A stretch of 64,000 bases of DNA, from positions 2,496,001 to 2,560,000 of the forward strand of contig CBDFKD010000002.1 in the NCBI GenBank assembly GCA_965248695.1. The letters run 5' to 3'. Below the pieces are notes generated by a model, which made no database searches, was not told the DNA's origin, and saw nothing but the letters and a program-made list of their open reading frames with translations. Shown here piece by piece: positions 6,414 through 43,729 of the stretch (position 1 is its first letter; each line of letters starts with the position of its first letter). The translations under genes were made by a program, and so were the position numbers. The stretch is from Acidobacteriota bacterium. GTDB lineage: Bacteria; Acidobacteriota; UBA890; WLXD01.

Positions 6414-7792
6414 TGTCTCTGCTCAGGGATCGTTTCGACGGACGGCTCGGCGAGCTCATGCAGCGCTTCTCGTCATCACTGCAGCTCGATCTGCAGATGC
6501 TCGACGAGGACATACAGGGCTCGACGGCGCATGCGCAGATGCTTGGCGAGACCGGCATCATCTCGAAACTGGAATCTACAGCCCTGTGCGACGGGCTGGC
6601 ACGAGTGCGCGAAGACCTTGCATCCGGGGCCTGGGTGCCGGGCGATGAATTCGAGGACGTGCACATGGCGGTCGAGGCGCGTCTGTCGGAGATCCTCGGT
6701 GAGGTCGCAGGCAAGCTACATACGGCTCGTTCGCGCAACGATCAGGTGGCCACCGACCTGCGCCTGTGGCTAAAGACGCGTCTGCGACGACTCGATGGCG
6801 CGCTGATCAACCTGCTGCGCGTGCTCCTGGATCGGGTCGAGAGCGACGGCTCCACGCTTCTGCCCGGCTACACCCACCTGCAGCGAGGTCAACCGATCCT
6901 GTTCGGCCATCATCTGCTGGCCTACGCATGGCCCTTGTCACGCGACCTCGGCAGAGTACGCGATGCGTCGCATCGATTCGACGAGTGTCCGTTGGGAGCG
7001 TGCGCCATGGCGGGCACCTCCTTCCCGATCGACCGGCATCGCACCGCCGAGCTGCTCGGCTTCAGATTGCCCACAGAAAATGCGATGGATTCGGTGGCGG
7101 CGCGTGATCATGTTCAGGAGGTTGCCGCGGCGTGTTCGATCCTGTCCTGCAACCTCTCGCGCATGGCCGAGGAGCTCGTCCTCTGGAGCTCGACCGAGTT
7201 TGCTCTCGTACGCCTCAGCGATACCTATTCCACCGGATCGAGCATCATGCCGCAGAAGCGCAATCCCGACGCTGCCGAGCTCGTTCGCGGCAAATCGGCA
7301 TCGGTTCTCGGCTACTGCACGACTCTGCTTGCCCTGCCCCGTTCTCAACCCTTGGCGTACAACCGCGACTTGCAACAGGACCGTGGGGCGCTGTTCGCGG
7401 TCGTCGACACGACCATCGACTGCGTCCTCGTCATGACGGAAGTGTGGCGAGACCTCTCGATCGCCAGTGAGCGCTACGAAGCCGACCTCATCGGCGACCC
7501 CTGCCTGGCGACCGAGGTCGCCGACGACCTCACCCGCGGCGGTCTGCCGTTCCGTACCGCGCACAGCATCGCCGCGCGGTTGGTCCGCCGCTGCGAGAGT
7601 CAGGGCTGCGGGCTCGACGGCTTGGCCGAAGATGAGCTCGAAGCCGTCCACGCGGGGCTCGCCGAGGTGGTGTCTCGCGTCGGCTCACCACGCGATGCGG
7701 CGGAACGGCGCCGGTCACACGGCGGCTCGTCGTCGTCAGAGATAGCGCGGCAGGTCGATGTCCTGCGCAAGTTAGCCAGCGAAGGCTCCTGA
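6410..7792 (+). CDS. argH: Argininosuccinate lyase
   Basis: [54 protein letters not shown]. Overlaps the argG stop. Confidence 0.96.
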
Positions 7793-7798
7793 GTCGGG

Positions 7799-8917
7799 TC
7801 AGATCTCCAGCTGGCGGTCGCGGGCGGCGACGTTCCACCGGCCGACAATCTCTCCTCCGGCGATGACCGTCGCGTGTGCGTGCAGCGCCGACGTAGGGCA
7901 AATGTGGTTCGGTATGGCCAGCAGCTCGTCACCCGGTTCGAACTTGGCAGCGGACGCCGTTTCCAGAACGAGGTGCTCCTCGTCCTGCAGCACTTCTCTG
8001 GCGTCGGGCAGGTCGGGGAAACAGAGCCGGGTACCGGCCGGCGGATCGGAAGCAACCGCCTTGTATCCCACGTCGAGGGTCATGCGATCGGCCATCGATC
8101 GGCTGACGACGCGGGTCAGGAGCGCCGCCGCCGGCGTGAACTCGAGATCGGGAAACGCCTCGCCGTAGCCGATGTCGTTGAACACACAGGTGCCGGGGCT
8201 ACACTGGATCATCGAATCCTCGATCGAGGCGAACACCGGAAACGAACCCGTTCCGCCGGCGACGATTCGCGGCACCGGCCAGCCCCGCTTCACTACCTCG
8301 TCGCGAAGCGCAGCGACCGGCTTCCAACCAGCGAGCACCGCCGATCGACGTTCCGCCAGGGACGTCTGGTGGTTGTGTCCGTCGTACAGATGTATCCCTC
8401 CGGATGTAAGCCCCGGTGTCTCAACGATCTGCCGGTAGAGCTCAAGTGCCTGGTCGCTTTCCGCCGGAAGCCCGGTGCGGTGCTGTCCTGAGTCGATGTC
8501 CAGCAGCACTTCGACCGACTGCCCGGCCCGCTGCATGGCTGTCCCCAGCGCGGCGATCGGCTTCGGGTGATCGGCAGTGACCGAGAACGTGACATCGGGA
8601 AACGTGGCGCAAAAGGCGACCGCGCGAGCGATATTGGGGCCGACGAGACCGTAGGCGAGAAAGACATCCTTCACGCCGCAGCGGGCGAGCAGCTCGGCCT
8701 CGGCAAACGTCGCCGCCTTGTGTCGCGCGATGCCGCGAGCGAGTTGCATCGCGATCACCTCGCCCATCTTGTGCGTCTTGCAGTGCGGCCGTAGCCGGTC
8801 TGCTGAACCGGCAATCCGGATCATCCGGTCGAGGTTTTCTTCGAGAATCTCGCGAAAGACAATCAGCGCCGGCGTGAGAATCTGGCTCGGGTCTTTGATT
8901 TCGTAGCGGGATTCCAT
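7799..8917 (-). CDS. PLP-dependent D-threonine aldolase / D-serine dehydratase (DSD1-like, fold type III) family protein
   Basis: TPAL, LRPHCKTHK (PLP lysine), HLYDGH, GGTGSF, EEH, PNHICPT. Confidence 0.88.
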   Translation of the reverse strand: MESRYEIKDPSQILTPALIVFREILEENLDRMIRIAGSADRLRPHCKTHKMGEVIAMQLARGIARHKAATFAEAELLARCGVKDVFLAYGLVGPNIARAVAFCATFPDVTFSVTADHPKPIAALGTAMQRAGQSVEVLLDIDSGQHRTGLPAESDQALELYRQIVETPGLTSGGIHLYDGHNHQTSLAERRSAVLAGWKPVAALRDEVVKRGWPVPRIVAGGTGSFPVFASIEDSMIQCSPGTCVFNDIGYGEAFPDLEFTPAAALLTRVVSRSMADRMTLDVGYKAVASDPPAGTRLCFPDLPDAREVLQDEEHLVLETASAAKFEPGDELLAIPNHICPTSALHAHATVIAGGEIVGRWNVAARDRQLEI

Positions 8918-9033
8918 CTGGTGTAGCCGACGCTCTCTCTTCTGGATCTGGCCGCCGGACTACTCTACGGTGTTTCACCACCCTGCATGCTGGGCGGCGG
9001 GGTGGCGGCATAGGCAGCGAACGAGGACCGATC

Positions 9034-9315
9034 ATGACGACCGAAACTCAACAGCAGTTGGACGTACCCCAGCTAGTCCTGGAGGCCAGCGAGAGATGCC
9101 AGGATTACCTCTCGCCCACACCGCTGGAGTACTCCTTGTACCTCAGCAAGGAGATCGAGGGCGAGGTCTGGCTCAAGCTGGACTCGATGCAGATCGGGGG
9201 CGCTGGCGGTTGGGGCCTGCTCAAACACAAGGCGCGGTTCAGGGGAAAGAAGGTCGTTGCGGTCGCCTGTGGGCGAAACATCAATCTGGACGTGTTCAAG
9301 CGCATCATTGCGTAG
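9034..9315 (+). pseudogene. Threonine/serine dehydratase (PLP fold II) remnant with a large in-frame internal deletion
   Basis: The N-terminus (PTPLEYS.YLS.....EVWLKLDSMQ) joins directly to the family C-terminus (GKKVVAVACGRNI). The SFK PLP-lysine region and the core are absent. 93 aa versus about 320 expected. Confidence 0.75.
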
Positions 9316-9386
9316 GCTCCATTGGGCGGACTTGAGAAAAAGCGGATGGTCGACGCAGTTTCAGCGTCAGAGAATCCGGAGGAACT

Positions 9387-11378
9387 ATGACCAGGAGTGA
9401 GGATCGTGGTCTCGGGATGCACCGGGATATCACCCGGCGCGACTTCGTCAATGGCGTGGGGGTGGCGATCGGGGGGTCGCTAATCGCACCTGGCCGGCTG
9501 TCGGCGCGCGAGGCTATGCGCCATGCCTCCCCGGCGCAGGAGTACTATCCGCCGGCCCTCACAGGAATGCGCGGCAGCCACGCCGGTTCGTTCGAGGTCG
9601 CCCATGCGCTCCGTGACGGGCAAACCTGGACCAATGTCACCGACACGCGTGAGAGCTACGACCTCGTAGTGGTCGGCGGCGGGCTGAGCGGGTTCTCGGC
9701 GGCCTATTTCTTCCTTACCTCGGCCGGCCCCGGCGCCCGCGTGCTGGTGCTCGACAATCACGACGACTTCGGCGGCCACGCCAAGCGCAACGAGATGACG
9801 TACCGCGGCCGCACGCTGATGCTGCCCGGCGGTACGTCGTACCTCGAGTCCGTGGGCCATTACAGCGCCGTTTCCAGGACGCTTCTCGCTGCGATCGGCA
9901 TCGACATCGACAGTGCCAACGCCACCAGCACCGCGGGTAGGAGGTTCTACGGATCGCTGGGGCTCGGTAGTGCCACGTTCTTTAGCAAAGAGGTGTTCGG
10001 CGAGGATCGGCTGGTGATGGGCCGTGGCGGCCAAGCCGGTGGCCAATCTGGTGGTTGGCCGGATTGGCTCGCGCAGACCCCGATGTCATCGGAGGCGCAG
10101 CGGGACATCGCGCGGCTCTACGACGACGGGGCGAACCCGGACACCATGCCCGGGCTGTCGGATGCCGACAAGAAGGAGCGGCTGGCGCGGATCAGCTATC
10201 GAGACTTCCTCCTCGATCTGGCCAAGGTTCACGCCGACGTGATCCCGTTCTTCGACGACCGCCCGAAGGGCAGCTTCTGCGTCGGCATCGACGCCCATCC
10301 GGCGCTGTATGCATGGGCCCAGGGCTATCCCGGCTTCCAGGGGATGCACCTGGAGCCTTTCGCCCCCGTAGGCCCCCTGGCGCACATCGGCGGCGGACAA
10401 CACGGTCGCGAGAACGAGTTTGATGAACGACCGGACATCTACTTCCCCGACGGCAACGCGACGGTGGCCCGGCTCCTGGTTCGCGCCATGATCCCCGACG
10501 CGCTTCCGGGAACTTCGCTGGATGACTCGATGACGTCGCGCCTCAGGTACGACCGCATCGACCGCGACGGCTCCGACGCCCGGATTCGCCTCAACAGCAC
10601 GGTGATCTCCGCCCGGCACCTGGGCGATCCCGATGTGGCCCGCGAGGTCGAGATCACCTATGTGCGCGGCGGCAAGGCCGAGAAGGTACGGGCGGCTCAT
10701 TGTGTGATGGGTTGCTACAACCGGGTCGTCCCGCACCTGTGCCCCGAGATGTCCGACGAGCAGAAGGTGGCGCTCATGTATGGCGTCAAGATGCCGCTCG
10801 TCTCCACTAGCGTCCTCATCCGAGACTGGACGTCCTTCACCAACCTGGGCATCTCACAGGTGACCGCTCCGGGGATGTACCACAGCGGGATCAACCTCGG
10901 TCGGTCGATCCAGTTCGGCGACTACCAACCTTCCAGATCGCCTGACGACCCGATGATCGTGGAGATGTACAGGGTGCCTTGCGCTCCGGGACACCCGAAA
11001 AAGGAGCAGCACCGCATCGGGCGAGAAGATCTGTTGGCCACCACTTTCGAGACTTTCGAGCGCAATATCCGCGACCAGCTCGGTCGAATGCTGCAGGGTG
11101 GCGGCTTCGACCCGGCCCGGGACATCGAAGCGATCACCGTGAATCGCTGGCCACACGGCTACGCCTATAGCTACAACACCCTGGACGATCCGATCGAGTG
11201 GGCGCTGTTCACCCCCGACGACCGGCCGTGCGTGGTCGGGAGTCGGCGATTCGGTCGGATCTCCATCGCCAACTCCGATGCCGCTGCCTCGACCCACACC
11301 GACTCGGCCATCGACGAGGCGCATCGGGCGGCCCGCGAGCAGCTCCTCGTTCGAAGCCGTGCCCGGCGAAGAACGTAA
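9387..11378 (+). CDS. spdH: Tat-exported FAD oxidoreductase, spermidine dehydrogenase (SpdH) family
   Basis: ITRRDFVNG Tat motif, YYPPALTGMRGSH.GSFE.AH, GGGLSG, DNHDDFGGHAKRNE, FPDGNAT.AR.LV, ITVNRWPHGYAY, IANSDA. Confidence 0.8.
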   Translation: MTRSEDRGLGMHRDITRRDFVNGVGVAIGGSLIAPGRLSAREAMRHASPAQEYYPPALTGMRGSHAGSFEVAHALRDGQTWTNVTDTRESYDLVVVGGGLSGFSAAYFFLTSAGPGARVLVLDNHDDFGGHAKRNEMTYRGRTLMLPGGTSYLESVGHYSAVSRTLLAAIGIDIDSANATSTAGRRFYGSLGLGSATFFSKEVFGEDRLVMGRGGQAGGQSGGWPDWLAQTPMSSEAQRDIARLYDDGANPDTMPGLSDADKKERLARISYRDFLLDLAKVHADVIPFFDDRPKGSFCVGIDAHPALYAWAQGYPGFQGMHLEPFAPVGPLAHIGGGQHGRENEFDERPDIYFPDGNATVARLLVRAMIPDALPGTSLDDSMTSRLRYDRIDRDGSDARIRLNSTVISARHLGDPDVAREVEITYVRGGKAEKVRAAHCVMGCYNRVVPHLCPEMSDEQKVALMYGVKMPLVSTSVLIRDWTSFTNLGISQVTAPGMYHSGINLGRSIQFGDYQPSRSPDDPMIVEMYRVPCAPGHPKKEQHRIGREDLLATTFETFERNIRDQLGRMLQGGGFDPARDIEAITVNRWPHGYAYSYNTLDDPIEWALFTPDDRPCVVGSRRFGRISIANSDAAASTHTDSAIDEAHRAAREQLLVRSRARRRT

Positions 11379-15884: not shown

Positions 15885-17138
15885 CTAACGCCGGGCGTCG
15901 GTCGCGGTCAGCGGGCTCAGGTAGTCCCTGCCGCTGATCCCCTTCTTCCTCATGGCGATGCCCGTCAGGCACTCGTCGACGACCTGCTTGGAGTTGAGCA
16001 CGGTCGTGTAACCCGAGTCGAGGAGGGGGTTGAGCTCGACGAGGTCGAAACCGACGACGTTGTTCTCGGCGCACAGGCCGCGAACGATGGGGAACACCTC
16101 GCGGGGCATGAGTCCGCCCGGCACGGGGGTGCCGGTTCCCTGGGTGAACGCCGGGTCCATGACGTCGATGTCGAACGAGATGTGCAGATAGTCCGGCCCG
16201 TCGTTGGCCTCGTCGAGAACTCGTTCCATGACGATTCCCCAGCCGTCGCGATTGATCTCGGCCATGGTGTGGTAGCGGAGGTTGTTGGCTCGCATCCACT
16301 CGAACCCGGCCTCCCCCGGCCAAGCACCCCGCAGGCCTACCTGGATGAAGTTCTGACCGAGGACGTGTCCGTCGTCGACGAGCCGTCGTATCGGCTGTGC
16401 GTGGGAGATCAAGTGGCCACGGCGAGTGTCGCCGGCGTCGTAGTGGGCATCGAAATGGATGACGCCAACGGCCTCCTTGCCGTACACGTCCGCGAGCCCG
16501 GCAACGTTGGCGAACTCGATAGAGTGATCCCCGCCGATGATGATAGGGATGGCGCCCGCCTCGGCGATCTCGCGCACCATGCGTCGAATGGGCGGCATGC
16601 TGCGCTCGACGCTCAGGTTGTCGATCGGAGCGTTGCCGTAATCCACGGCCTTCAGCTCCTCCTTCCAGCTGATCATCGTCTCCATGCTGCCGCCGCCGCG
16701 CCGCAGCGCGCGGAATGCAGTGGGTCCCTCGCCGGCGCCTCGATACCCGACCCCCATGTCGACAGGGGCTCCGATGAACGCCACCTCCACCTCGCCAGCG
16801 GTCAGGTCCTCGATCGTCCTGGCAACGGGTAGCCCGAAGAAGCTCAGGGCCGATCCGACTCCGACCGGTCCCGGCTCGCGCGGCGGATCGTCCGAGATGT
16901 CGCGATCCCTCCACACCTCGAGGTTCTCGTCATTCGGATCCAACCGGATGATCGCCGATTCGGGGTCGACTTCCGGCTCGCCCTGTTCCTCGCCTTCCGC
17001 GGCCTCGCTCTCTGTCGACTCGGCTTGGTCGGAGTCCGGCTCCGAAACGGCTTCGGCGGGATCAGCGGCCGGCTGCGGCGTGCAGGCAACCGAGAACACC
17101 AGCAACAGGATCGCGATTGCCCGCGTGAGCCGCCGCAC
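15885..17138 (-). CDS. Ureohydrolase (agmatinase/arginase family) lipoprotein
   Basis: Likely GTG start at 17138, 2 nt after the Rieske gene stop. Lipobox-like SVA-C. Metal motifs GGDHS, DAHYD, SFDIDVMDP, GTGTPVPGG, DLVELNP. Confidence 0.88.
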   Translation of the reverse strand: MRRLTRAIAILLLVFSVACTPQPAADPAEAVSEPDSDQAESTESEAAEGEEQGEPEVDPESAIIRLDPNDENLEVWRDRDISDDPPREPGPVGVGSALSFFGLPVARTIEDLTAGEVEVAFIGAPVDMGVGYRGAGEGPTAFRALRRGGGSMETMISWKEELKAVDYGNAPIDNLSVERSMPPIRRMVREIAEAGAIPIIIGGDHSIEFANVAGLADVYGKEAVGVIHFDAHYDAGDTRRGHLISHAQPIRRLVDDGHVLGQNFIQVGLRGAWPGEAGFEWMRANNLRYHTMAEINRDGWGIVMERVLDEANDGPDYLHISFDIDVMDPAFTQGTGTPVPGGLMPREVFPIVRGLCAENNVVGFDLVELNPLLDSGYTTVLNSKQVVDECLTGIAMRKKGISGRDYLSPLTATDARR

Positions 17139-17140: not shown

Positions 17141-18688
17141 CTAGTCGCCGGCCTGCACGACTTCCTTCATGTACCAGTCGATGAAACGGGACGGGCCGCC
17201 CTCGTGGGTGGAGTAGCGACCGGCACCGTAGGCACCCGACTCGATGCCGGCGTGGTTGTTTTCGGTGATCCAGATGTCCTCCTGGATCGTGACGTGCCAC
17301 AGCGCCTTGACGTTGTCCGGATCGTAGTCGCGACCGTCGACGGCGTCGGGGTGCACCAGCCAGACGATCTCGCAGTCGGTGAAGTTCTCCGACCGCGGCG
17401 TGAACCGAGCCACGGCGACGTGGTCGTCGTAGGTCTGCCAGTAGCCGGTCGACTCGGCGGTCGTCGTGCCGCCCGTCTCGTGCTTCCACTCCGTGATACC
17501 CGGGAGCAGGATCGACACCGCCTTGCCATCGATTGATCCGGTAACGAAGCCGGGATTGAGCAACCCGCCCATGCTGCCGTAGGCGGGCGTGTCGGCGTCG
17601 CCTTCGCCGCCCATGCCTTCACCGCCCATGCCCTCGGCACCCACATCAGCCGACGCGGAATTCCGCCGTCGACGCGCGTGCGGCGGCACCCAGGCAGCGA
17701 CCGCGGCGGCCTTGTCTGCCCGCTGCTCGGGGGTGAGGTCGTTGTCCCAGTTGTGGGTGGTTACCAACGGGGTATGCGCTGGCCCGCAGTGATAGCACTC
17801 CTTGAAATTCTCCAGCGCCAGCTTCCAGTTAGCGTTGATCGGGTAGTACTCGCGCGCCGCGACCTTGAGCTCCTCCAGGGGCCACTTCTCGCCCACGGGA
17901 CCAAGCCGGCTGGCTACGGCCGTCTCGAAGTCGGGCGGCGTGTCCGACTTCGACAGGTTGACGAAGACCTGGCCTTCGGCGACTCGCAGGTGGCAGGGCA
18001 GCAGGCCGTTGTCCGCCGGGTCGAAGTCGTCCTGCATGCCGTAGGCGTAGATGAGGCTGCCCTCGGTGTCGTAGGTCCAGGCGTGGTACGGGCACCGAAA
18101 CACGGGAGAGCTACCCGACTGCCCCAGCTGCTTGACCGACAGGCGCGGGTCATCGGGCTTCTCGTCGGCATCGTGACGGCACAGCCGTGATCCGCGATGG
18201 CGACAGACGTTGTAGAAGCCGCGGATCTCGTTGTCCTGTCCACGCACGATGAGGATCGACTCGGAGCGACCGAACTCGAAGACGTAGAAGTCACCCGGGT
18301 TCGGAATGCGGCTCGCCTGGTCGGTGTACTGCCATAGGTTCTCCGCCACGAAGGCCTCGTCGGCGTCGAAGTGCTGCGCCTCGGTGTAGTACTCGGCGGG
18401 AATGGTGGTCCCCTCTTTCCAGCCGTTCACGCTGGCCTTGCGCGGAAGCGGCGCGGTGAGGGCAGGCGCACCGCGGCCACCATAGCCAACAGGATCGTTG
18501 CGCATCTCGACACGGGCGGCGCGACCATAGGTGGTCTTCTTGGCGGCCGTCTTGGCCGGGGTCGAGCCGAACAACGACTTGGGCAGGGTCACTGCCGCCG
18601 TGCCCGCAGCGACGGAGCTGGTCGCGAAGGTTCGGCGGCTCAGCTTGGTCTCCGCACCGGTCATCTCGTCTGTGTCTCGCTTGCTCAT
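17141..18688 (-). CDS. Rieske non-heme iron oxygenase alpha subunit (GbcA/CntA/Stc2-like) with a twin-arginine signal
   Basis: CRH...CPYH Rieske ligands, NWK...ENF.ECYHC...H and QED iron ligands, N-terminal SRRTF followed by an Ala/Val-rich segment. Confidence 0.9.
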   Translation of the reverse strand: MSKRDTDEMTGAETKLSRRTFATSSVAAGTAAVTLPKSLFGSTPAKTAAKKTTYGRAARVEMRNDPVGYGGRGAPALTAPLPRKASVNGWKEGTTIPAEYYTEAQHFDADEAFVAENLWQYTDQASRIPNPGDFYVFEFGRSESILIVRGQDNEIRGFYNVCRHRGSRLCRHDADEKPDDPRLSVKQLGQSGSSPVFRCPYHAWTYDTEGSLIYAYGMQDDFDPADNGLLPCHLRVAEGQVFVNLSKSDTPPDFETAVASRLGPVGEKWPLEELKVAAREYYPINANWKLALENFKECYHCGPAHTPLVTTHNWDNDLTPEQRADKAAAVAAWVPPHARRRRNSASADVGAEGMGGEGMGGEGDADTPAYGSMGGLLNPGFVTGSIDGKAVSILLPGITEWKHETGGTTTAESTGYWQTYDDHVAVARFTPRSENFTDCEIVWLVHPDAVDGRDYDPDNVKALWHVTIQEDIWITENNHAGIESGAYGAGRYSTHEGGPSRFIDWYMKEVVQAGD

Positions 18689-18842
18689 GACGCCCTCCGT
18701 TCATCGAACTGAAACCGCAGTTCCTTCCTGCCACCCGAGCGTTATCACGAGCGCGGTGGTAATACAACGGACAGTGTGGCGTTCCGTACCACGACCATAC
18801 GCGGTTTCGAGACCCAAGCGCAGTCCCGGGAGGAGTAGAGCG

Positions 18843-20195
18843 ATGGCCAACTACGAATTCGATCGGCGGGCTTTCCTTGCCGGCTCGGCGGCATCCGCCG
18901 CGTGGGCCCTTTCCGACCGCGAGGCAGCGGCCAGCGGTGGCATCAACGCACAGGCCGTGCAGGAGGCGCTTACCCCCAGCCTGGATGGGCACCCTGGCCC
19001 ACCCTTCTCCAGAGCCGAGTACGCCGACCGACTGCGTCGCGTTCGCGAGCGCATGGCGCAGGACAACATCGACATGCTGCTGGTCACCATGCCCGAGGGC
19101 ATGTGCTACCTGCACGGTTTGCAGGTGAACTGGTACCAGCAGAACGATGGCCGGTCGCGGATGCTCAATGTGACCGCCGTGCATGTGGATCACGACAAGC
19201 TGATCCACTTCGACAGCCATGCGGAGATCATGGCGACCACATCCGTCGCCGAGGACATCCGCCCACCGGGCGGCGGCGCCCAGCGCTACGAGTCGGTGGC
19301 CAAGGAGCTGAAGGCGGCGGGCTGGCTCGAGGGTACCGTCGGGCTGGAGTTCTGGAGCTATCGTCCCAACCCGGGAAACTACGAGCGCCTGAAGGCAGTG
19401 TACGAGGGTCACGGTTGCAGGCTGGTCGACGGCTCCGACGTCTTGTCGGATGTACGGGTGCAGAAATCGCCGGCGGAGATCGCCGTGATGGAGGAGGCCG
19501 GACGGATCTGCGACCTCGGCTTGCAAGCAATCACCGACAACCTGCGCCCGGGGGTCACCAAGCTGCAGCTGTACGGGGCGATGATGCAGGCGATGGCAGA
19601 TGCGGGTGGCGAGACCGCCGGCCTGCTGCAGGGCGTCAAGGCGGGCGGCTGCAAGTTCCTGCACGGCATCTCGTCGACACGCGAGATCAAGGCAGGCGAT
19701 CACGTCGTCGCCGATATCTGCGGCGTCAAGCACCGCTACCACACCAACACCTGCCGCGGCTGGCATGTCGGCGAGCCGCCGGCAGCGCTGGTCGACATCT
19801 ACAAGCGGAACGGTCACGCCTCGCAGGTGCTGCTCGATACCGCCAAGGCCGGCACTCCGGTCGCCGAGCTCACCAGGGCGTTGCGTCGCTACTACAAGGA
19901 AGTCGGGGTGTGGGAGATGAAGCAGAAGGGCGACTTGCCCGGCTGGACCGGCGGCTACGAGCTCGGCCTCAGCTTCCCGCCTAGCTGGGTCGGCTGGCAT
20001 GGCTTCGCGGTGACCGACACCGACGTTCAGTCCACCTCCAGCCGCAGGCCCTACGAAGCGTTCCAGGAGCGCCAGATCAGCAACTACGAGAGCTTCGCGA
20101 CCGGCAGCACGGCCCTGATCGACACGTTCGTCTTCGAGCCCGACGGTGCCCGAATCCTGACGGACATTCCGGCGGAGTTGATCGTCGTTGCCTGA
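18843..20195 (+). CDS. M24-fold creatinase / ectoine-hydrolase-like amidohydrolase with Tat signal
   Basis: RBS AGGAG then ATG 18843. DRRAFL Tat motif, FSRAEYADRL..VRERM, KSPAEIA. RYHTN and GGYELG replace the metal-ligand motifs of Xaa-Pro peptidases. Confidence 0.8.
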   Translation: MANYEFDRRAFLAGSAASAAWALSDREAAASGGINAQAVQEALTPSLDGHPGPPFSRAEYADRLRRVRERMAQDNIDMLLVTMPEGMCYLHGLQVNWYQQNDGRSRMLNVTAVHVDHDKLIHFDSHAEIMATTSVAEDIRPPGGGAQRYESVAKELKAAGWLEGTVGLEFWSYRPNPGNYERLKAVYEGHGCRLVDGSDVLSDVRVQKSPAEIAVMEEAGRICDLGLQAITDNLRPGVTKLQLYGAMMQAMADAGGETAGLLQGVKAGGCKFLHGISSTREIKAGDHVVADICGVKHRYHTNTCRGWHVGEPPAALVDIYKRNGHASQVLLDTAKAGTPVAELTRALRRYYKEVGVWEMKQKGDLPGWTGGYELGLSFPPSWVGWHGFAVTDTDVQSTSSRRPYEAFQERQISNYESFATGSTALIDTFVFEPDGARILTDIPAELIVVA

Positions 20196-20212: not shown

Positions 20213-22417
20213 ATGTCACCCGGATCCAGACGACGTTTCGTAGGCGGGCTCGGCATGCTCGCTGGTGGTGGGCTGCTTGCCGACGGGCTGAGCGGCTGGC
20301 CAGCATATGCAGCGGGAAGCTGGCGCTCGGTCGGTGCGCAGGCCCCGTGGTCGACCGACGCGGGCAGCGTAGGGGTTTCTCCTGGGCCGTGGACGTCGCT
20401 GCCACAGATGGTGCCGGGCGTGCACCTGGAGAGCCTACGGCTGCGCATGCCGGACGGCGTTCACCTGCACGCGTTGCTCTACTTGCCCACGTCGCTGCGG
20501 GAGATGCGTCCGGTCCCGGCGCTGCTCAACACCACGCCCTACCGCAACATGCCGCGCGCCGACAGTTACCACGCGCGCCACGGCTATGCGTCGATCTACG
20601 TCGATGTCCGCGGCAGCGGCGCCTCCGAGGGGGTCCCCGAGGACGAGTATTCCGAGCAGGAGCACCGCGATACGGCGGCGATCATCGACTGGCTCTCCAA
20701 GCAAGCCTGGTGCAACGGCAACGTCGGCATGCACGGGGTGTCGTATTCGGCCATCAACTCGGTGTGGGTGGCGGCCGACGTGCAGCCGCCAGCGCTCAAG
20801 GCGATCTTCGTGCGCGCCGGTCACGATGCCCGCTACACCGACGACATCCACTTTCCCGGCGGCGCGATGCTGATGGTCGACAACTCCTGGGCCATCGGCA
20901 TGGTCGGCAGCAACGTCATGCCCGGCGCCCCGGACTACCCGCTTTACAACGAGGCCTCGATGGACCGCTGGGAGACACCCCCGTGGCTCATGGGGTTCCT
21001 GCGCCATCAGCGCTACGGCCCCTACTGGGAACGTGCCTCTCTCGCACCGCGCTACGAGCGACTGCAGACACCGACCTTCGTCGCCGGCGGTTACCTCGAC
21101 ATCTACCAGAACTTCGTGATGCGCATCATGCGCAACTCGCCCGCGATCAGCCGCGGCGTGCTCGGGCCCTGGCACCACGGCCTGGTACCGGGGCCGCAGA
21201 TGGACTGGGACGCCATGCAGGTGCGCTGGTTCGATCGCTGGCTCAAGGGCATCGACAACGGCGTCGATCGCGAGCCGCGCGCGTCATTCTTCATGCCTCG
21301 CTGGCAGTCGCAGTCGTTCCGCTACATCGATGACGTGCCCGGCGAGTGGCGCCATCTCGACGCCTGGCCCGACTCCGCCTTCGAGCCCCCGGAACGTCTT
21401 TACTTGCGGCCCGAACCGGAAACGCCGGTCGCGGCGGCGCTCGCGGCCGAGCCCGCACCGGGCCGCGGCGGGCGTCTCGACGAGCAATCGGGCGACGCAT
21501 CGGCCCTGCAGCTGCGCTACTACCCGGCGACCGGTGGATGGGGCCAGTCGTTCGGCCCCACTACAAGCGAGGGCTACTACGGCATCGACCACCGCGCCGA
21601 GGACACCTACGGGCTGAGCTTCGACACCGCGCCGCTGCGCCAGCCACTGGAGATTCTCGGCTTCGCGCGCGCCCGGCTGTTCGTATCTTCGACCGCCCCG
21701 GTCGCCACCTGGATCGTGCGCCTCAACGACGTCGCTCCGGACGGCTCCTCGTACATGGTGTCGCGCGGCTACCTGAACGGCACCCACCGCGACTCGCACA
21801 GCGAGCCGAAACCGCTCGTGCACGGCGAGGTGTACGAGATCGAGGTGGAGATGTGGTGCGTCGGCCACACCTTCGAGCCCGGGCATCGTGTGAGGGTCGT
21901 TGTCACCAACGCCGACTTCCCGGTGATCTGGCCTTCCCCCGCGAAGATGACGACCACGCTCCATACCGGCGGCGACCGTCCATCGTACGTCGAGCTGCCA
22001 GCGCTCACAGCGTCAGGCTACGGAGAGTCGGAGCTGCGACTCATGGACGCGGACGATCCTCGGCGGTCGACGCGTGACAACGTGCAGGCCTACCAGCGCA
22101 CGCACGACGTAGCCTCGGGCGAACACACTGCCTACTTCGAGCTCGGGAACGTGCTGCAGCCGGGCGAGACGTCGACTCGCGGGATGGACCGGATCTGGTG
22201 CAGAGTCGACGAGAACGACCCCGCCGTCGCCTCGGTGCGGTTCGAGGGCACCAGCAGCGGGCAGGCCGGAGGACGCCGGGTGGACGCGCGGGCCGAGGGG
22301 ACGCTTTCCAGCGACGCGCAGGCCTTCACGCTCGACGTCGAGTGCACCCTGCTCGACAACGACGAGGTGGTGCGCAGTCGGCGCTGGCAGGACCGGGTGC
22401 CGCGCGACGGCGTCTAG
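20213..22417 (+). CDS. CocE/NonD family (S15) serine hydrolase, Tat-like signal
   Basis: SRRRF N-terminus, TPY, DVRGSGASEG, WCNGNVGMHGVSY nucleophile, GPWHH, PepX_C-like C-terminal domain. Confidence 0.9.
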   Translation: MSPGSRRRFVGGLGMLAGGGLLADGLSGWPAYAAGSWRSVGAQAPWSTDAGSVGVSPGPWTSLPQMVPGVHLESLRLRMPDGVHLHALLYLPTSLREMRPVPALLNTTPYRNMPRADSYHARHGYASIYVDVRGSGASEGVPEDEYSEQEHRDTAAIIDWLSKQAWCNGNVGMHGVSYSAINSVWVAADVQPPALKAIFVRAGHDARYTDDIHFPGGAMLMVDNSWAIGMVGSNVMPGAPDYPLYNEASMDRWETPPWLMGFLRHQRYGPYWERASLAPRYERLQTPTFVAGGYLDIYQNFVMRIMRNSPAISRGVLGPWHHGLVPGPQMDWDAMQVRWFDRWLKGIDNGVDREPRASFFMPRWQSQSFRYIDDVPGEWRHLDAWPDSAFEPPERLYLRPEPETPVAAALAAEPAPGRGGRLDEQSGDASALQLRYYPATGGWGQSFGPTTSEGYYGIDHRAEDTYGLSFDTAPLRQPLEILGFARARLFVSSTAPVATWIVRLNDVAPDGSSYMVSRGYLNGTHRDSHSEPKPLVHGEVYEIEVEMWCVGHTFEPGHRVRVVVTNADFPVIWPSPAKMTTTLHTGGDRPSYVELPALTASGYGESELRLMDADDPRRSTRDNVQAYQRTHDVASGEHTAYFELGNVLQPGETSTRGMDRIWCRVDENDPAVASVRFEGTSSGQAGGRRVDARAEGTLSSDAQAFTLDVECTLLDNDEVVRSRRWQDRVPRDGV

Positions 22418-22504
22418 CCCTTGACGGTCACGCCGATCGGCATCTAGCCTGCCTCCGTGAGCGGCAAACTCCGACGCCACTTTCTTCTGTCAGGAGAGCG
22501 CATC

Positions 22505-23875
22505 ATGGGCACCGAATCGGCACGCGCGCGACATCCACGGCTATGGGGGACGTCGCTGCTAGCGCTCCTCGCCCTGCTGACTTTCAGCGGCAACGCTGTC
22601 TCGATGCAGCAGTCTGGCGCACCGACATCAGCTGGCGGAAACGCCGTCTCCTTCACCCGCGACGTGGCGCCGATCCTGCAGCAGAACTGTCAGATCTGCC
22701 ATCGGCCAGGCTCGGTCGGACCGATGTCGCTGCTTACCTACGATGAGGCCAAGAGCTACGCGCCAATGATCAAGGCGCAGGTGGCCACCCGGGCAATGCC
22801 TCCCTATCACCTCGACACTCAGGTCGGGATCCAAGCAATCAAGGGCGACTGGCGGCTGAGCAAGCAGCAGATCGAGACGATCGTCGGCTGGGTGGACAGC
22901 GGTATGGCGATGGGAGACATCGCCGACATGCCGCCCCCGATGGAATGGCCCGAGGCCCAGAGGTGGCAGCTCGAGGACCAGCTGGGCAAGCCGGATCACG
23001 TGATCGAGTCACGTCCCTACGACGTGCCGGCCGAAGGGGGCGACATTTGGTGGCGTCCGCGAGTAGAGACGGGGCTCAACACCGACCGGCTGATTCGGGC
23101 CTTCGAAATCCGCCCTTCCTTCCCCGCCGGGCGGCAGGTCGTGCACCACGCCATCCCCAGGCTCTTGACCCCCAACGCGGATGGCGAGTGGGTCCGGACG
23201 GCAATGCTGTCGGAATACGCCATGGGCAAGGTCGGCGAAATCATCCCGCAGGACGCGGCCCGGCTGCTGCCGGTGAACTCGCTGATCGAATGGGACGTGC
23301 ACTACTACCCGATGGGCTACGAGATCGAGGACGATCAGATCGAGCTCGGCCTCTGGCTCTACCCGGAGGGCTACGAGCCGGAATACATGCAAGACCTGGA
23401 CATGTATCGCCTGCAAGGCGACATCGCCCTGGCACCCGGCGGAACCGCAATGACCCAGGGTTTCCACCGCTGGGATCATCCGGTTCGGATCGACAGCTTC
23501 CAGCCCCACGGGCACGTACATCTTCATGCCAAATCCATGCGGGCGATCTATCCGGACGGCTCCGAGGAGCTGTTGAGCATGGTGACCAACTTCAACGCGC
23601 GATGGCACCACAGCTATATCTATGAGGACGGCGTCGCTCCGCTGCTGCCCACCGGTACCGTGCTGGTGATCACCGCCTGGTACGACAACACCGAGAACAA
23701 CCCCCTGAATCCCGATCCGGAAGTCTGGTACGCACGCGGCGCCCGCACGACCGACGAGATGTCGCATGCTTGGCTGGCGGTAACCCACCTGGATGAAGCG
23801 GGCTACGAAGAGCTGGCGGCCGAGAGGAAAGCGAAGTCAGAGGTTGCGGCTGAAGACAGTGACGACGGGAGCTGA
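22505..23875 (+). CDS. Secreted c-type heme + PHM/DBH-like dicopper monooxygenase homolog (paralog 1)
   Basis: RBS AGGAG then ATG 22505. Signal peptide, FTRDVAPILQQNCQICH, AMPP, then VVHH, VHYY, PHGH and DEM in PHM copper-ligand order. Confidence 0.78.
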   Translation: MGTESARARHPRLWGTSLLALLALLTFSGNAVSMQQSGAPTSAGGNAVSFTRDVAPILQQNCQICHRPGSVGPMSLLTYDEAKSYAPMIKAQVATRAMPPYHLDTQVGIQAIKGDWRLSKQQIETIVGWVDSGMAMGDIADMPPPMEWPEAQRWQLEDQLGKPDHVIESRPYDVPAEGGDIWWRPRVETGLNTDRLIRAFEIRPSFPAGRQVVHHAIPRLLTPNADGEWVRTAMLSEYAMGKVGEIIPQDAARLLPVNSLIEWDVHYYPMGYEIEDDQIELGLWLYPEGYEPEYMQDLDMYRLQGDIALAPGGTAMTQGFHRWDHPVRIDSFQPHGHVHLHAKSMRAIYPDGSEELLSMVTNFNARWHHSYIYEDGVAPLLPTGTVLVITAWYDNTENNPLNPDPEVWYARGARTTDEMSHAWLAVTHLDEAGYEELAAERKAKSEVAAEDSDDGS

Positions 23876-30933: not shown

Positions 30934-31386
30934 CTAGTCGAGCAGTTGCAGGCGCAAGCCGGCGAAGCGCCGGAAACCACGGTCGAAGGTGGTCAACACC
31001 ATGTTCTCGGCGATCGCGAAGGCCGCCAGATAGGCGTCTGTCCACAGGCCGGGTGAGCCCAGGCTCGCTTCAGTCGCTGTTCGCAGGATCTGTTCGAGCC
31101 CTTGCGGCTCATCTGCGAAGTGCACCGGCGCCTGATCAAGTAGCGCCTCGTAGTCGCTCCATGCCTGCAGCGGGTCACGTACTGACGACCCCATGACCGC
31201 GCCATTGGTCAGCAGCCGCAACAGTCCGAGCTGCGTCAAGCGGCAGAAGTGAACCGTGTCGCCCCGGGGGAGCACCTGATGTCGCCACCAGGCAATCGCT
31301 GCTTCATGATGCGGATGGGGCTGGAGTACGGTCGCGAGCCACAGGTTCACGTCAGCGAGAATCGGGCGGGGGGGAGATGCGCTCAA
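30934..31386 (-). CDS. vapC: PIN-domain VapC toxin
   Basis: ILADVNLWLA...HPHH, TQLGLLRLLTN, WTDAYLAAFA, TFDRGF. Probable TTG start overlapping the antitoxin gene. Confidence 0.9.
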   Translation of the reverse strand: MSASPPRPILADVNLWLATVLQPHPHHEAAIAWWRHQVLPRGDTVHFCRLTQLGLLRLLTNGAVMGSSVRDPLQAWSDYEALLDQAPVHFADEPQGLEQILRTATEASLGSPGLWTDAYLAAFAIAENMVLTTFDRGFRRFAGLRLQLLD

Positions 31387-31663
31387 GCTCCTCCTTCTCC
31401 AGGATCTCGTGTAGATGCTCGGGCGTAAGGTCTCGCAGGTCCGGGCCACCCGGCCCCTGGATCAGAGGAAAGACACAATCCTCGGCCAGCCGCTGAGCAC
31501 CGCGATCGCCGTACTCCGGCGCCCGTTCCGCGAGATGCATCCGGCCGTCGAGGGCAGCGCGCAGGGACTCCGAAACGAAGTCCTTGAGCTTCATGCCGCG
31601 CAACGCGGCCTCGGACTTGGCTCGTCTGAGCAGCCCCTCCGGCAGATCGATGGTCGTTCGCAT
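31352..31663 (-). CDS. vapB: Ribbon-helix-helix antitoxin (VapB-like)
   Basis: MRTTIDLPEGLLRRAKSEAALRGMKLKDFVSESLR RHH N-terminus, directly upstream of and overlapping the PIN gene. Confidence 0.85.
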   Translation of the reverse strand: MRTTIDLPEGLLRRAKSEAALRGMKLKDFVSESLRAALDGRMHLAERAPEYGDRGAQRLAEDCVFPLIQGPGGPDLRDLTPEHLHEILEKEELERISPPPDSR

Positions 31664-32664: not shown

Positions 32665-34368
32665 TCATCCGGCGATCGAGTCCCAGTTCTCCACTAGGTG
32701 ATCGGCGGCGCGCCAGGCGAGCGCCTGTACGGTGAGCGTCGGGTTGCGCGCACCACTGGTGCCCATGACGGAGGCTCCGAGCACGCCGAGATTGGGCGCC
32801 TCGTGTGAAAAGCCCCAGCGGTCGACGACGTTGGTCGCAGGGTTGTCGCCCATGCGCGTGCCGCCGTAGGCGTGATCCGTCGGCCCCATAGTGCCGAGCG
32901 AGCGCCGGGAGACCTCCACCGCGCCCGCCTCCATGTACCACTGCTCCATCTTGTCCAGCAGGAAGCTGTGGAGCTTGTTCTCGTTGTCCTTGAAATCCGC
33001 CGTGATACGACACACCGGATCGCCGAGAGGATCCTTCACGGTGGGATGCAGATCGAGGTAGTTGTCCTCGTACGGCAGCGTCGTCGCCTGGATGAAGGGC
33101 CGGTTGGAGCGGTCGGCGTTCTCGCTGACGAACGACTTCCATGCGGAGCCCCAGCGCGGCGCGCGCCCGAACGTGCTCATGCCGGCAGCGCTGATCGGCT
33201 TGCGCTCGGTGTGTACCCACAGGTTGCCGCCACCAATGAAATCCAGCTCGTCGTGGTCGAAGTTGTCATCGGCCCAGTCGTCGATCGCCACCCCCTGTGC
33301 CGGCAGGCCATACCAGGTGTTGAGATCGCGCGGAAAGAGCGCCTCGACGCCGGAGAACATGGCGTGGCTCATGTAATGCCTGCCGACCTGACCGCCATTG
33401 TTCGACAGACCGTGCGGATACTTGGCCGACTTCGACATCAGCAGAAGCCGTACGTTCTCGTAGGTGAAGCTGGCTACCAGCACCACCGACGCCGGCTGGA
33501 AGTAGGTCTCGCCGTCCTTGAGGTAGTGAACGCCGCGAGCGCGCCCGTCGTCAGATTCGGCGATTCGCAGCACATGAGCCCGCGGCACGACCTGCAGGTT
33601 CCCGGTGTCGATTGCCCTGGGAATGGTCGTTACCGCGGTCGAGTTCTTGGCGCTGACGTGACAACCACCGCGGCTACAGAAACCGTGATAAACGCAGGCC
33701 GACCGGTCCTGGTACGGCTGTGAGTTGATCGCCGCCGGGCCCGGGAAGGGGTGCCAATCGAGCCCTCGCGCCGCACCCGACATGAGCTCGGTGAAGCCCG
33801 TGCCCCGAAGTGGTGGCATCGGAAACTCACGCCGGCGCGGCCCCTCGAAGATGTTGCCGCCCTCGTCCAGCTCGCCGTTGACGTTGCCGGCCTTGCCCGA
33901 GACCCCGATCTCGTACTCGACGCGGTCGTAATAAGGCTCGAGCTCCTCCAGCCCGAACGGCCAGTCCTCCACGGTAGAGCCCGCCGGGATGCGCCCGGCA
34001 CCGTAGCGCCGAGTGGTCTCTCTCACAACCTTGAAGTCCCACGGGTTGAGACGCCAGCTCTGCGCCCAGTAATGAAGCGAAGTGCCGCCGACGGCGTTCA
34101 TCATCGGGTGGACGGAGTACCGCGGCGACTCGGGTGCCGTGGCGCTCGAACGGTGCACCGGAACCTCGCGGTTCGCCTTCTGCACCGCGCGTGGCCAACC
34201 GCGCCGGTGCTGTAGCTCGTCGGGGGCGAAGTCGGACGGACCCATCCAGTCTCCGGCTTCCAGCCCGATGACTTCGAGCCCGGCCTCTGCCAGCGGCAGG
34301 GCGGCCACACCGCCGACGGCGCCGAGGCCGACGATGACCACGTCGGTCTTCTTCAGCTCAACGGCCAC
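32665..34368 (-). CDS. GMC-family FAD oxidoreductase (gluconate 2-dehydrogenase large-subunit-like)
   Basis: DVVIVGLGAVGG, GGTSLHY, CVYHGFC..GGC, ENVRLLL.S, HAYGGTRMG, NPTLT.QALAW. GTG start at about 34368 (or 34374) overlaps the small-subunit stop. Confidence 0.9.
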   Translation of the reverse strand: MAVELKKTDVVIVGLGAVGGVAALPLAEAGLEVIGLEAGDWMGPSDFAPDELQHRRGWPRAVQKANREVPVHRSSATAPESPRYSVHPMMNAVGGTSLHYWAQSWRLNPWDFKVVRETTRRYGAGRIPAGSTVEDWPFGLEELEPYYDRVEYEIGVSGKAGNVNGELDEGGNIFEGPRRREFPMPPLRGTGFTELMSGAARGLDWHPFPGPAAINSQPYQDRSACVYHGFCSRGGCHVSAKNSTAVTTIPRAIDTGNLQVVPRAHVLRIAESDDGRARGVHYLKDGETYFQPASVVLVASFTYENVRLLLMSKSAKYPHGLSNNGGQVGRHYMSHAMFSGVEALFPRDLNTWYGLPAQGVAIDDWADDNFDHDELDFIGGGNLWVHTERKPISAAGMSTFGRAPRWGSAWKSFVSENADRSNRPFIQATTLPYEDNYLDLHPTVKDPLGDPVCRITADFKDNENKLHSFLLDKMEQWYMEAGAVEVSRRSLGTMGPTDHAYGGTRMGDNPATNVVDRWGFSHEAPNLGVLGASVMGTSGARNPTLTVQALAWRAADHLVENWDSIAG

Positions 34369-35035
34369 GGCCACCGCCCGGGGTAGAAAACGCCCGATAG
34401 TCGTATGCTGAACGCCCACTCGACTCCACACCCACGTCCATTTGCTGCTGCGACTCGGTAACCACGACTCGCACACCCGGGTAACCGATCAACTCCCAGC
34501 CGACCAGATCGCGATTGCCGCCATAGTGTGGGTCGCAGAAGGTCCCCTCGATGGTGTGTGACCGGAGCAGCCCGAAGAACTCTCCCGAGCTCGTATCGAA
34601 GCCCGTGGCGTTATCCCCCTCCATGTCACGCAGAACATCGTCCTGATCGTCGGCCGACAGCCGGGCGAAGCGCGCGCCGCGCGTGGCCTCGGCGAACCTG
34701 TCCACCGCTGCCAGACCCGCCGAGTACGCGCCCCGATGCGTCGCCAGGGCGCCGGAGAGGCCGCGGTCGATGTAGCGGGCGGCGCCCGCTTCGGTAGCGC
34801 CGGGGCCGTTTTCGTCAGTGGGTATCAGGCGCGCTACGATCGCCTCGAGTACGTCAGACTCCGCTGCGGTGAGGGTTTCGAAGGCGCCCTGGGTACGCTC
34901 GGAGCTCTCGATCGATGCCAGCGCCGGCACCGGCAACGTCGCCGTCGCCCCGACGATTCCGGCACGCTTCAGCAGCTCGCGTCGCGACACCCCTCGGCCG
35001 GCGGCGAGCGCCCGGATGAACTCCCTGATCCTCAT
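34358..35035 (-). CDS. Gluconate 2-dehydrogenase subunit 3 family (Tat small subunit)
   Basis: SRRELLK Tat motif, RLIP.DE.GPGA.EAGA..YID, EGTFCDP.YGGN....GW.LIGYPG. Confidence 0.9.
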   Translation of the reverse strand: MRIREFIRALAAGRGVSRRELLKRAGIVGATATLPVPALASIESSERTQGAFETLTAAESDVLEAIVARLIPTDENGPGATEAGAARYIDRGLSGALATHRGAYSAGLAAVDRFAEATRGARFARLSADDQDDVLRDMEGDNATGFDTSSGEFFGLLRSHTIEGTFCDPHYGGNRDLVGWELIGYPGVRVVVTESQQQMDVGVESSGRSAYDYRAFSTPGGGRGR

Positions 35036-35096
35036 CGACGTTTCTCCGGCTCCAGTCCTGCCCTCGCTTCCTTCCCGTCAGTCTCGCGCTCGAGCG

Positions 35097-39063: not shown

Positions 39064-39175
39064 CGAGATCCTCCGGCGCGGTGCCCAGTTCGCGAGCCTG
39101 GCTATCGAAACACGGCGTTTCCTCGTAGTCCACAGACAGGTGGAGGAACGAGCGCTACTGTGCTCCAATCTGGCC

Positions 39176-43457: not shown

Positions 43458-43729
43458 CAGGCCGTGGTGGAAGTGTGGCGGGCCTGGCGACAGGGCCTTG
43501 CGAGGTGGAGGCAAGGAGAGAGGAGGAGGCGATGGTTACCCCATCGTTGACGACGAACGACACAGCATTACGCGCGCAACCCCCTGTCGCCCAAAGGGTT
43601 GCGGCGATTTGGGGCCATCTGCGGCGTTGGCCCTCCTCGACGATGGCTAGGGCATCGGCTGCGTCAGGCCGCCTCACATCTGGCCCCAACTCGTCGCAAC
43701 CAGACCCGCCACACTTCCACCACGGCCTG
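43458..43729. mobile_element. 272-bp MITE with 30-bp terminal inverted repeats and CTAG target duplication
   Basis: Left end CAGGCCGTGGTGGAAGTGTGGCGGGCCTGG (43458-43487) matches the reverse complement of 43700-43729 at 29/30. CTAG flanks both sides (43454-43457, 43730-43733). No transposase. Confidence 0.88.

Follow-up and report, generated by a model that had tools for sequence, protein, structure and literature searches.

Putative Tat-exported Rieske monooxygenases in an Acidobacteriota genome and heme proteins as their candidate electron donors

How would a Rieske oxygenase be supplied with electrons outside the cytoplasm? The question is raised by two paralogous genes, A and B, in a 64,000-nucleotide stretch of an Acidobacteriota bacterium genome (assembly GCA_965248695.1, contig CBDFKD010000002.1, positions 2,496,001 to 2,560,000 of the forward strand; G+C content, 65%), which we refer to as the window. 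Both genes encode Rieske monooxygenases whose N-termini resemble a twin-arginine translocation (Tat) signal and whose Rieske domains carry an insertion. To our knowledge, every characterized Rieske oxygenase resides in the cytoplasm or stroma, and the classification of these enzymes follows their chain of NAD(P)H reductase and ferredoxin. The original prediction from this locus was an extracytoplasmic Rieske oxygenase with a noncanonical electron donor, and it is supported here by a conserved signal, by the co-occurrence of signal and insertion, and by the lack of a linked reductase. With moderate confidence, we propose that A and B would be periplasmic monooxygenases of the Stc2/GbcA type, exported by Tat and fed by heme proteins. 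A further step, which we take only tentatively, is that they would represent a new class of Rieske oxygenase system, periplasmic and free of NAD(P)H, in which a [2Fe-2S] cluster with a loop-reshaped surrounding is reduced by an SpdH-like flavocytochrome b or a class I cytochrome c.

The two genes and their diagnostic segments are located as follows.

17141-18688, minus strand: paralog A, Rieske monooxygenase alpha subunit with putative Tat signal (515 amino acids [aa]; Pfam Rieske and Ring_hydroxyl_A).
18554-18688, minus strand: putative Tat signal of A, residues 1-45 (SRRTF, 17 uncharged residues, possible TPA/K cleavage site).
18083-18205, minus strand: Rieske ligands of A, C162-x-H164 ... 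C199-x-x-H202, with the clade-specific 17-residue insertion (sequence, motif scan).
17774-17800, minus strand: ECYHCGPAH of A, which holds the bridging Glu and supplies the mononuclear iron with two His ligands (sequence).
44444-45967, minus strand: paralog B, Rieske monooxygenase with putative Tat signal (507 aa; 59% identical to A).
45839-45967, minus strand: putative Tat signal of B, residues 1-43 (SRRDFAK, h-region, VRA/E cleavage site).
45335-45457, minus strand: Rieske ligands of B (C171 onward), with a 34-residue spacer (sequence, motif scan).

The start of B was placed at the ATG that agrees with the N-termini of its homologs; a longer open reading frame (ORF), which extends to 46063, has no homolog support. 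The scores of A and B exceed the curated cutoffs for both Rieske (PF00355; 44.6 and 50.3 bits; cutoff, 20.3) and Ring_hydroxyl_A (PF00848; 96.6 and 105.7 bits). In a 26-row alignment with a mean column identity of 50%, the ligands C162, H164, C199, H202, E297, H300, and H305 of A are invariant, and E470/D471 are conserved in at least 90% of the rows. From its position in that alignment, we infer that D471 is the Asp ligand of the 2-His-1-carboxylate iron site. The motif ECYHCGPxH is found in the catalytic domain of both proteins, and the Glu bridging residue (E-C-Y-H-C) marks the quaternary-amine group of Rieske oxygenases. Pfam matches and alignment thus bear out the initial description of both ORFs as holding the Rieske and catalytic domains, every cluster and iron ligand, and the ECYHC motif. 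The best NCBIfam model for both proteins is that of the glycine betaine monooxygenase GbcA (NF058607), but their scores of 219 and 231 bits are far below its cutoff of 670, and A and B are therefore relatives of GbcA and not its equivalogs.

The CxH and CxxH ligand pairs are separated by exactly 34 residues in A and in B, and DPRLSVKQLG lies inside the spacer of both copies, as had been noted. This length falls outside the usual range of 15 to 20 residues for Rieske oxygenase alpha subunits. Among the 120 closest homologs listed (48 to 90% identical to A), the spacer has 34 residues in 117 proteins and 35 in the remaining 3. For comparison, we took the 150 best matches in a library of 50%-identity representatives. 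A spacer of 16 to 20 residues is present in 118 of them, which agrees with the earlier statement that about 15 to 17 residues are usual. These short-spacer representatives are 31 to 45% identical to A, have mostly ~370 to 440 aa, and begin to match at about residue 85 to 95 of A, and so have no N-terminal extension. Five of the 118 fit the twin-arginine (RR) pattern, and on inspection none of the five then has a hydrophobic stretch. An RR signal is present, on the other hand, in every representative that has a spacer of 34 to 44 residues and an intact N-terminus.

In a tree of 95 proteins, built with the N-termini cut and the columns between the ligand pairs removed, all 50 long-spacer rows are on one side of a single branch (Shimodaira-Hasegawa-like approximate likelihood ratio test [SH-aLRT], 100). 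Because the long-spacer rows share one branch and the signal tracks the spacer, signal and insertion mark one clade, and the question of whether they co-occur across homologs is answered in the affirmative. On this tree, A and B are members of a clade of Stc2/GbcA/CntA-like Rieske monooxygenases that is distinct and has a single origin. Within the insertion, positions S184, V185, Q187, G192, F197, and R198 of A are invariant in the 26-row alignment. The family was detected at E ≤ 1e-60 in at least 5 of 201 genomes sampled from the phylum (four of the same genus and one other), a count that is a lower bound because this survey used a stricter first pass. A 1,556-aa open frame at the homolog in G038 was considered as a fusion and rejected; third-codon-position G+C (GC3) profiles identify it as a high-GC open-frame artifact upstream of a normal Tat-signal gene.

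The N-terminus of A contains KLSRRTFATSSVAAGTAAVTLP and begins MSKRDTDEMTGAETKLSRRTFATSSVAAGTAAVTLPKSLFGSTPA, and that of B contains KVSRRDFAKSSVAAGAAAVALPGAVRA/EA and begins MSDGGHKNGSNEAEANKVSRRDFAKSSVAAGAAAVALPGAVRAEA. The Tat consensus is S/T-R-R-x-F-L-K. The corresponding n-region motif is SRRTFA in A and SRRDFAK in B, followed by an uncharged h-region of 17 and 16 residues, respectively. R18 and R19 of A are invariant in all 26 aligned homologs. The Tat-like signal predicted for the two paralogs proved to be kept across the family: [STND]RRx[FLY] with an uncharged run (median, 16 residues) is present in 110 of the 120 closest homologs. (A script counted 111 matches, one of which, P0050, was discarded as false on inspection.) Seven of the 10 homologs that lack the match have their first residue within the signal, a sign of truncated gene calls. 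The architecture, consisting of an RR n-region, 10 to 27 uncharged residues, and often AxA, is retained down to 42% identity, while the linker behind it is variable. The genome, which comprises 5.89 Mb in two contigs, encodes Tat machinery, with two TatC genes (PF00902; 215 and 161 bits), and 18 long-spacer oxygenase paralogs, 17 of which have the RR N-terminus. It also has four short-spacer (16 to 18 residues) Rieske-motif ORFs that lack a signal, three of them oxygenase sized and one of 168 aa. We consider it very likely that A and B are exported, because the whole signal architecture is conserved and the neighboring genes carry export signals of their own.

Two of the 18 paralogs deserve separate mention. 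The one that has no RR (locus L032, G000 C2:2817746-2819152) retains the h-region (…GAGHSAVVGYTAAAIGLP…) and lies among transposase genes (rve, Mutator). Another is interrupted by an in-frame TGA (L034:5598-8836; G000 C2:3037319-3038890, minus strand); its halves look otherwise intact (394 and 244 bits), and a recent pseudogene, a sequencing error, and read-through are all conceivable.

Export has its own difficulties. A has no clear AxA cleavage site, three homologs (P0019, P0027, and P0084) start in the mature part and may lack the signal, and the Tat profile hidden Markov models (PF10518 and TIGR01409) give no match for A and scores under threshold for B (19.8 versus 22.7 bits and 9.2 versus 16.7 bits, respectively). 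These scores would be compatible with an N-terminus that is a vestigial or nonexport Tat-like tag, for example one for chaperone binding or proofreading such as that of NarG, on cytoplasmic enzymes that use a generic ferredoxin and reductase encoded elsewhere. Every characterized relative being cytoplasmic also speaks for such a tag. We nevertheless regard it as improbable, given the conservation of the full signal architecture over the identity range described above and the export signals on products of adjacent genes, which are of Tat type in the SpdH-like, M24, and S15 proteins and of lipoprotein type in the arginase-like protein and the cytochrome c (see below).

The supply of reductases also argues against a cytoplasmic enzyme. 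As originally reported, the window holds no ferredoxin or classical reductase: a Pfam scan of its 45 ORFs (E ≤ 1e-5) gave no Fer2, FNR, or Pyr_redox_2 match, and when its coding-like frames were scanned for motifs of 4Fe-4S, plant-type Fer2, and rubredoxin, none turned up. Neither Ring_hydroxyl_B nor Fer2 nor FNR domains were found when the 102 ORFs that neighbor the paralogs were added to those 45; the lack of a nearby beta-subunit gene fits the homotrimeric alpha3 type. A reductase consistently linked elsewhere was likewise not found. The whole genome has a single FNR-type NAD_binding_1 domain (PF00175), located 178 kb from the nearest of the 18 paralogs, and none of its 14 Fer2 matches adjoins a paralog. 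These searches covered the FNR and Fer2 types and included no genome-wide search for ferredoxin reductases of the glutathione reductase type, which a cytoplasmic enzyme could still use.

To place A among enzymes of known structure, we modeled its residues 86 to 515 with a 141-row alignment (mean predicted local distance difference test [pLDDT] score, 92.6). The best structural match is the stachydrine demethylase Stc2 (3vca; Z = 40.9; root mean square deviation [RMSD], 2.7 Å over 372 residues; 32% identity), followed by the uncharacterized protein 3n0q (Z = 40.2) and then the carnitine monooxygenase CntA (Z = 32 to 34), with concordant results from Foldseek. Across the Stc2 and 3n0q matches, the RMSD is 2.7 to 3.0 Å over 372 to 378 aligned residues. 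The nearest relatives of A and B in both sequence and structure belong to the quaternary-amine group (Stc2, GbcA, and CntA), and the closest solved structures are those of Stc2, 3n0q, and CntA. The insertion is modeled as an ordered, mostly irregular loop, with pLDDT means of 90 to 98 in 10-residue blocks. A 26-row alignment had given a disordered loop (pLDDT < 50), a result that was dropped in favor of the 141-row model. When A is aligned with 3n0q and 3vca, its 17 extra residues form a gap between the ligand pairs. The docking site for redox partners in known Rieske oxygenases is the end of the Rieske domain that holds the cluster, and, judged by its position in the sequence, the insertion would lie there.

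Stc2 (3vca and 4qup) and 3n0q resemble A and B in fold, domain order, Rieske and iron ligands, and ECYHC motif, and A and B are like Stc2 in having no beta-subunit gene nearby. What A and B add is a 45-residue signal, a 40-residue variable N-terminal linker, the 17-residue Rieske insertion, and a Met/Gly-rich disordered segment, and they have no linked reductase gene. GbcA, although the closest NCBIfam model, has the reductase GbcB, whereas no FNR/Fer2 reductase of the GbcB type is linked to A or B. CntA (6y8j; 27 to 28% identity) has in common with them a Glu, not an Asp, before the first iron His. This Glu is the bridging residue of the quaternary-amine group, and CntA itself is cytoplasmic and works with the reductase CntB.

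The Met/Gly-rich segment is the sole stretch of the A model with pLDDT values below 50 (model residues 261 to 272). It consists of GMGG-type repeats at window positions 17576-17680 (A residues ~337 to 371), between the iron motif and the C-terminal sheet, and is present in 87 of the 120 Tat-type homologs versus 4 of 38 short-spacer relatives. Met-rich loops of periplasmic proteins often bind Cu(I).

A recurrent neighbor of the paralogs is a protein of 655 to 712 aa that gives a full-length match to the spermidine dehydrogenase SpdH of Pseudomonas aeruginosa (7d9f to 7d9j; E = 1e-132 to 1e-141). The window contains one such gene.

9387-11378, plus strand: SpdH-like flavin adenine dinucleotide (FAD)/heme b dehydrogenase, candidate electron source (ITRRDFVNG Tat signal; 7d9j, E = 2e-132).

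Its product scores above the TIGR01409 cutoff (17.4 versus 16.7 bits) and has His at the positions aligned with His54 and His562 of the P. aeruginosa enzyme (SpDH). The SpdH-like neighbors share with SpdH the RRDF N-terminus and the two heme His positions, but they are ~45% identical to it or less and belong to a family of 26 paralogs in this genome. Most of the 26 genes start with a canonical (I/V)TRRDF signal. In a motif scan, both heme-ligand motifs were found in 21 of them, and a 22nd is split into two ORF pieces with one heme motif each. For 7 of the 18 oxygenase paralogs, an SpdH-like gene is found no farther than 500 bp away; the number rises to 10 when the limit is set at 3 kb and to 12 at 10 kb, and 2,000 random placements never yielded counts as high at any of the three limits. 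A complex prediction for one adjacent pair, the oxygenase C2:5612320-5613651 (residues 52 to 444) and the SpdH-like protein C2:5613689-5615620 (residues 52 to 644), returned a score of 0.00, which we count neither for nor against binding.

According to the accessible portion of PMC12564564, SpDH moves electrons from FAD to a surface-exposed heme b (ligands, His54 and His562), reduces cytochrome c or dyes in vitro, and, from about −0.14 V versus Ag/AgCl, delivers electrons to an electrode by direct transfer. The same portion of the paper itself likens SpDH to cellobiose dehydrogenase and names no oxygenase partner for SpdH.

A second candidate donor emerged from 27 foreign loci with a Tat-type oxygenase (12 genome contigs, one G038 locus, and 14 metagenome contigs). 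An SpdH-like gene is present in the available flank of 10 of them and adjoins the oxygenase gene in five (L044, L045, L108, L125, and L132); L126 has a distant flavocytochrome only. Clustering of the flanking ORFs revealed a small exported monoheme class I cytochrome c in 12 of the 27 loci, right beside the oxygenase gene in 11 of the 12. In L121, L123, L124, L125, L127, L129, L130, and L133, the cytochrome gene immediately follows the oxygenase gene on its strand, with an overlap or a gap of at most ~40 nucleotides (nt). It is convergent with the oxygenase gene, within ~130 nt, in L046, L048, and L134, and 7 kb away in L122. All five members tested score above the cutoff for Cytochrome_CBB3 (PF13442). 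The signal of these small cytochromes is mostly of the lipoprotein or Sec type, and most also share a conserved Met-Pro, which suggests Met as the sixth ligand, His/Met ligation, and a high potential.

Either an SpdH-like protein or the small cytochrome c is encoded in 21 of the 27 foreign loci. The loci tend to have one or the other, and both adjoin the oxygenase gene in L125 only, where the order is flavoprotein (7003-9048), oxygenase (9086-10552), and cytochrome c (10522-11097). The small cytochrome c family has five members in the genome under study, none of them near an oxygenase gene. No single cytochrome family recurs beside the 18 paralogs of this genome; an ORF with CxxCH lies within 4 kb of 5 paralogs (4 loci), and these ORFs belong to several unrelated families. 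Pyrroloquinoline quinone (PQQ) dehydrogenases also recur near oxygenase genes (10 members in 8 sources). At one site in the genome (G000 C2:5251520-5254133), an SpdH-like gene and a gene homologous to that of the small cytochrome c are encoded on one strand and overlap at the 3′ end of the former; this arrangement suggests that the cytochrome is also a partner of the SpdH-like flavocytochrome.

A cytochrome c gene directly downstream of an electron-consuming oxygenase, with no other obvious role, points to the cytochrome as the donor. The initial reading had doubted cytochromes c in this role. That doubt is weakened by the eight foreign loci with a class I cytochrome gene directly downstream on the same strand, while its basis, a mismatch in redox potential, stands.

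The association of a Rieske protein with a probably high-potential class I cytochrome c could also be taken to mean that electrons flow the other way: the exported enzyme would oxidize its substrate and pass electrons through the Rieske center to cytochrome c, in the manner of the arsenite oxidase Rieske subunit. The Rieske proteins of cytochrome bc1 and arsenite oxidase (AioB) are indeed Tat-exported [2Fe-2S] domains with heme redox partners, and the known Tat-exported Rieske proteins are electron donors to cytochromes. They are, however, small electron transfer subunits without a mononuclear-iron domain, unlike A and B as proposed here. The O2-activating mononuclear-iron ligands and the bridging Glu are invariant in the family, the catalytic domain superposes on that of Stc2, and we know of no precedent for reverse-flow chemistry in the Rieske oxygenase fold. 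We therefore give reverse flow very little credence.

Heme proteins as donors face several objections. Linkage between oxygenase and SpdH-like genes is incomplete, and the nearest SpdH-like gene is 5.8 kb from A and 33 kb from B. Both families are large (18 and 26 copies) and act on amines, so that adjacency could reflect a shared pathway and not electron transfer. Neither partner is present in 6 of the 27 foreign loci (L043, L047, L050, L051, L128, and L198), four of which have little flank. Five of the 27 come from one metagenome-assembled genome nearly identical to the genome studied here and are not independent. Finally, the classical Rieske centers of oxygenases have potentials near −150 mV. 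The heme of SpDH and a His/Met-ligated cytochrome c would be far more positive, and electron transfer from either would need a raised Rieske potential. Such a center would be workable, since the overall oxygenation is strongly downhill.

The same observations can be accommodated if the oxygenases are exported but the SpdH-like protein and cytochrome c are mere pathway or regulon neighbors, with electrons supplied by a quinol-linked membrane protein, by another periplasmic carrier, or through a peroxide shunt. In its favor are not only the partial linkage (7 of the 18 paralogs within 500 bp, and none within 33 kb of B), the common action on amines, and the mismatch in potential with ordinary cytochromes c but also the clustering of other exported catabolic enzymes (amidohydrolases, PQQ dehydrogenases, and sulfatases) at these loci. 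The monoheme cytochrome c, however, has no catalytic role of its own; its position directly downstream on the same strand in eight separate contigs is hard to explain except as that of a redox partner. The tendency of loci to have a flavocytochrome or a cytochrome c, with both adjoining only in L125, also counts against it. On balance, we judge such other donors to be unlikely.

If heme proteins are the donors, A and B would acquire their fold, [2Fe-2S] cluster, and Fe in the cytoplasm before export by Tat to the periplasm. There, they would receive two electrons per turnover from periplasmic heme proteins, since the periplasm has no NAD(P)H. One candidate is the SpdH-like flavocytochrome b, an amine dehydrogenase that would pass electrons from FAD to its surface heme b. 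The other, alone or in addition, is the small class I cytochrome c, which periplasmic dehydrogenases or the respiratory chain could feed. The Rieske insertion, of 17 to 27 residues, may be an adaptation of the docking surface to the new donor and perhaps accompanies a raised cluster potential. The reaction would be oxidative N-demethylation or C-N cleavage, acting on nitrogen compounds (methylated, guanidino, or polyamine type) that the cell scavenges in its periplasm. We regard this type of chemistry as probable because of the family to which A and B belong and of their exported hydrolase neighbors (arginase-like, creatinase-like, amidohydrolase, and S15 proteins). In its boldest form, the system would be self-fuelling: a neighboring PQQ or flavin dehydrogenase would oxidize the aldehyde released by N-dealkylation, and the two electrons would return through heme to the oxygenase.

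A functional analogy is offered by fungal cellobiose dehydrogenase and lytic polysaccharide monooxygenase (LPMO). The former, a secreted flavocytochrome with FAD and heme b, oxidizes a substrate and supplies electrons to the latter, an extracellular monooxygenase, and NAD(P)H is not involved. The folds are unrelated, the LPMO uses Cu in place of Rieske/Fe, and the coupling proposed for A and B rests on gene linkage. The self-fuelling form, if true, would be the bacterial counterpart of this pair.

We found no description of exported Rieske oxygenases in the full-text literature, a search whose coverage excluded subscription journals. A and B may belong to an enzyme class that is powered in a new way outside the cytoplasm. 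If so, the scheme that sorts Rieske oxygenases by reductase chain would gain a new class, with a Rieske/Fe catalytic unit that runs on cytochrome-level electrons. In ecological terms, the family suggests that methylated amines, guanidino compounds, or polyamines are scavenged oxidatively in the periplasm. The family is not confined to this genome with its 18 copies, as metagenomes provided at least 120 homologs, each from a separate 90%-identity cluster. For biocatalysis, an NAD(P)H-free oxygenase driven by a direct-electron-transfer flavocytochrome would be attractive. SpdH-type flavocytochromes would, in turn, gain a candidate physiological acceptor, where the accessible portion of PMC12564564 names only cytochrome c and dyes, in vitro.

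The genes around A and B in the window are as follows.

15885-17027, minus strand: arginase/agmatinase-family hydrolase, directly downstream of A (Pfam Arginase, 241 bits; lipoprotein-type N-terminus LLLVFSVAC; start codon not fixed).
18840-20195, plus strand: M24/creatinase-N hydrolase, divergent from A (Tat-like DRRAFLAGSAA; 14.5 and 15.9 bits with the Tat models, below threshold).
20213-22417, plus strand: S15 (CocE/NonD) hydrolase (Tat-like N-terminus SRRRFVGG...AYA).
22448-23875 (stop-to-stop frame), plus strand: exported protein of ~450 aa with one CxxCH (CQICH) and no Pfam family.
38876-39985, plus strand: diheme cytochrome c, 4.5 kb from B (Pfam Cytochrome_CBB3 and Cytochrom_C).
46053-46958, minus strand: EamA-family transporter, on the strand of B and immediately upstream of it.

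The redox proteins of the window that the first reading had not listed are the SpdH-like flavocytochrome at 9387-11378, four CxxCH proteins, and two PQQ dehydrogenases, and B is close to PQQ dehydrogenases. Other paralogs adjoin genes for amidohydrolases, a formamidase-family protein, a DAO flavoprotein, a GcvT-like protein, and a peptide transporter. Taken together, the neighbors of the paralogs point to nitrogen-rich small molecules as substrates, of which none is identified.

One of the CxxCH proteins, encoded at 22448-23875 (plus strand), belongs with those at 35805-37433 and 37813-39327 (both minus strand) to a family of exported proteins of ~430 to 540 aa with one N-terminal CxxCH and no Pfam match, which has 10 paralogs in the genome (E = 1e-32 or better). 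Elsewhere in the genome, a VanA-like oxygenase is split at L030:2777-3820 (minus strand) into a Rieske ORF of 202 aa and a VanA_C ORF of 145 aa, probably by a frameshift. The window also contains an AbiEii-type nucleotidyltransferase toxin domain (43651-44418, plus strand) and a PIN-domain protein (30934-31461, minus strand), which are likely toxin-antitoxin modules between catabolic genes. A GMC oxidoreductase and a gluconate 2-dehydrogenase subunit 3, encoded at 32665-35077 (minus strand), make up a further periplasm-facing dehydrogenase set.

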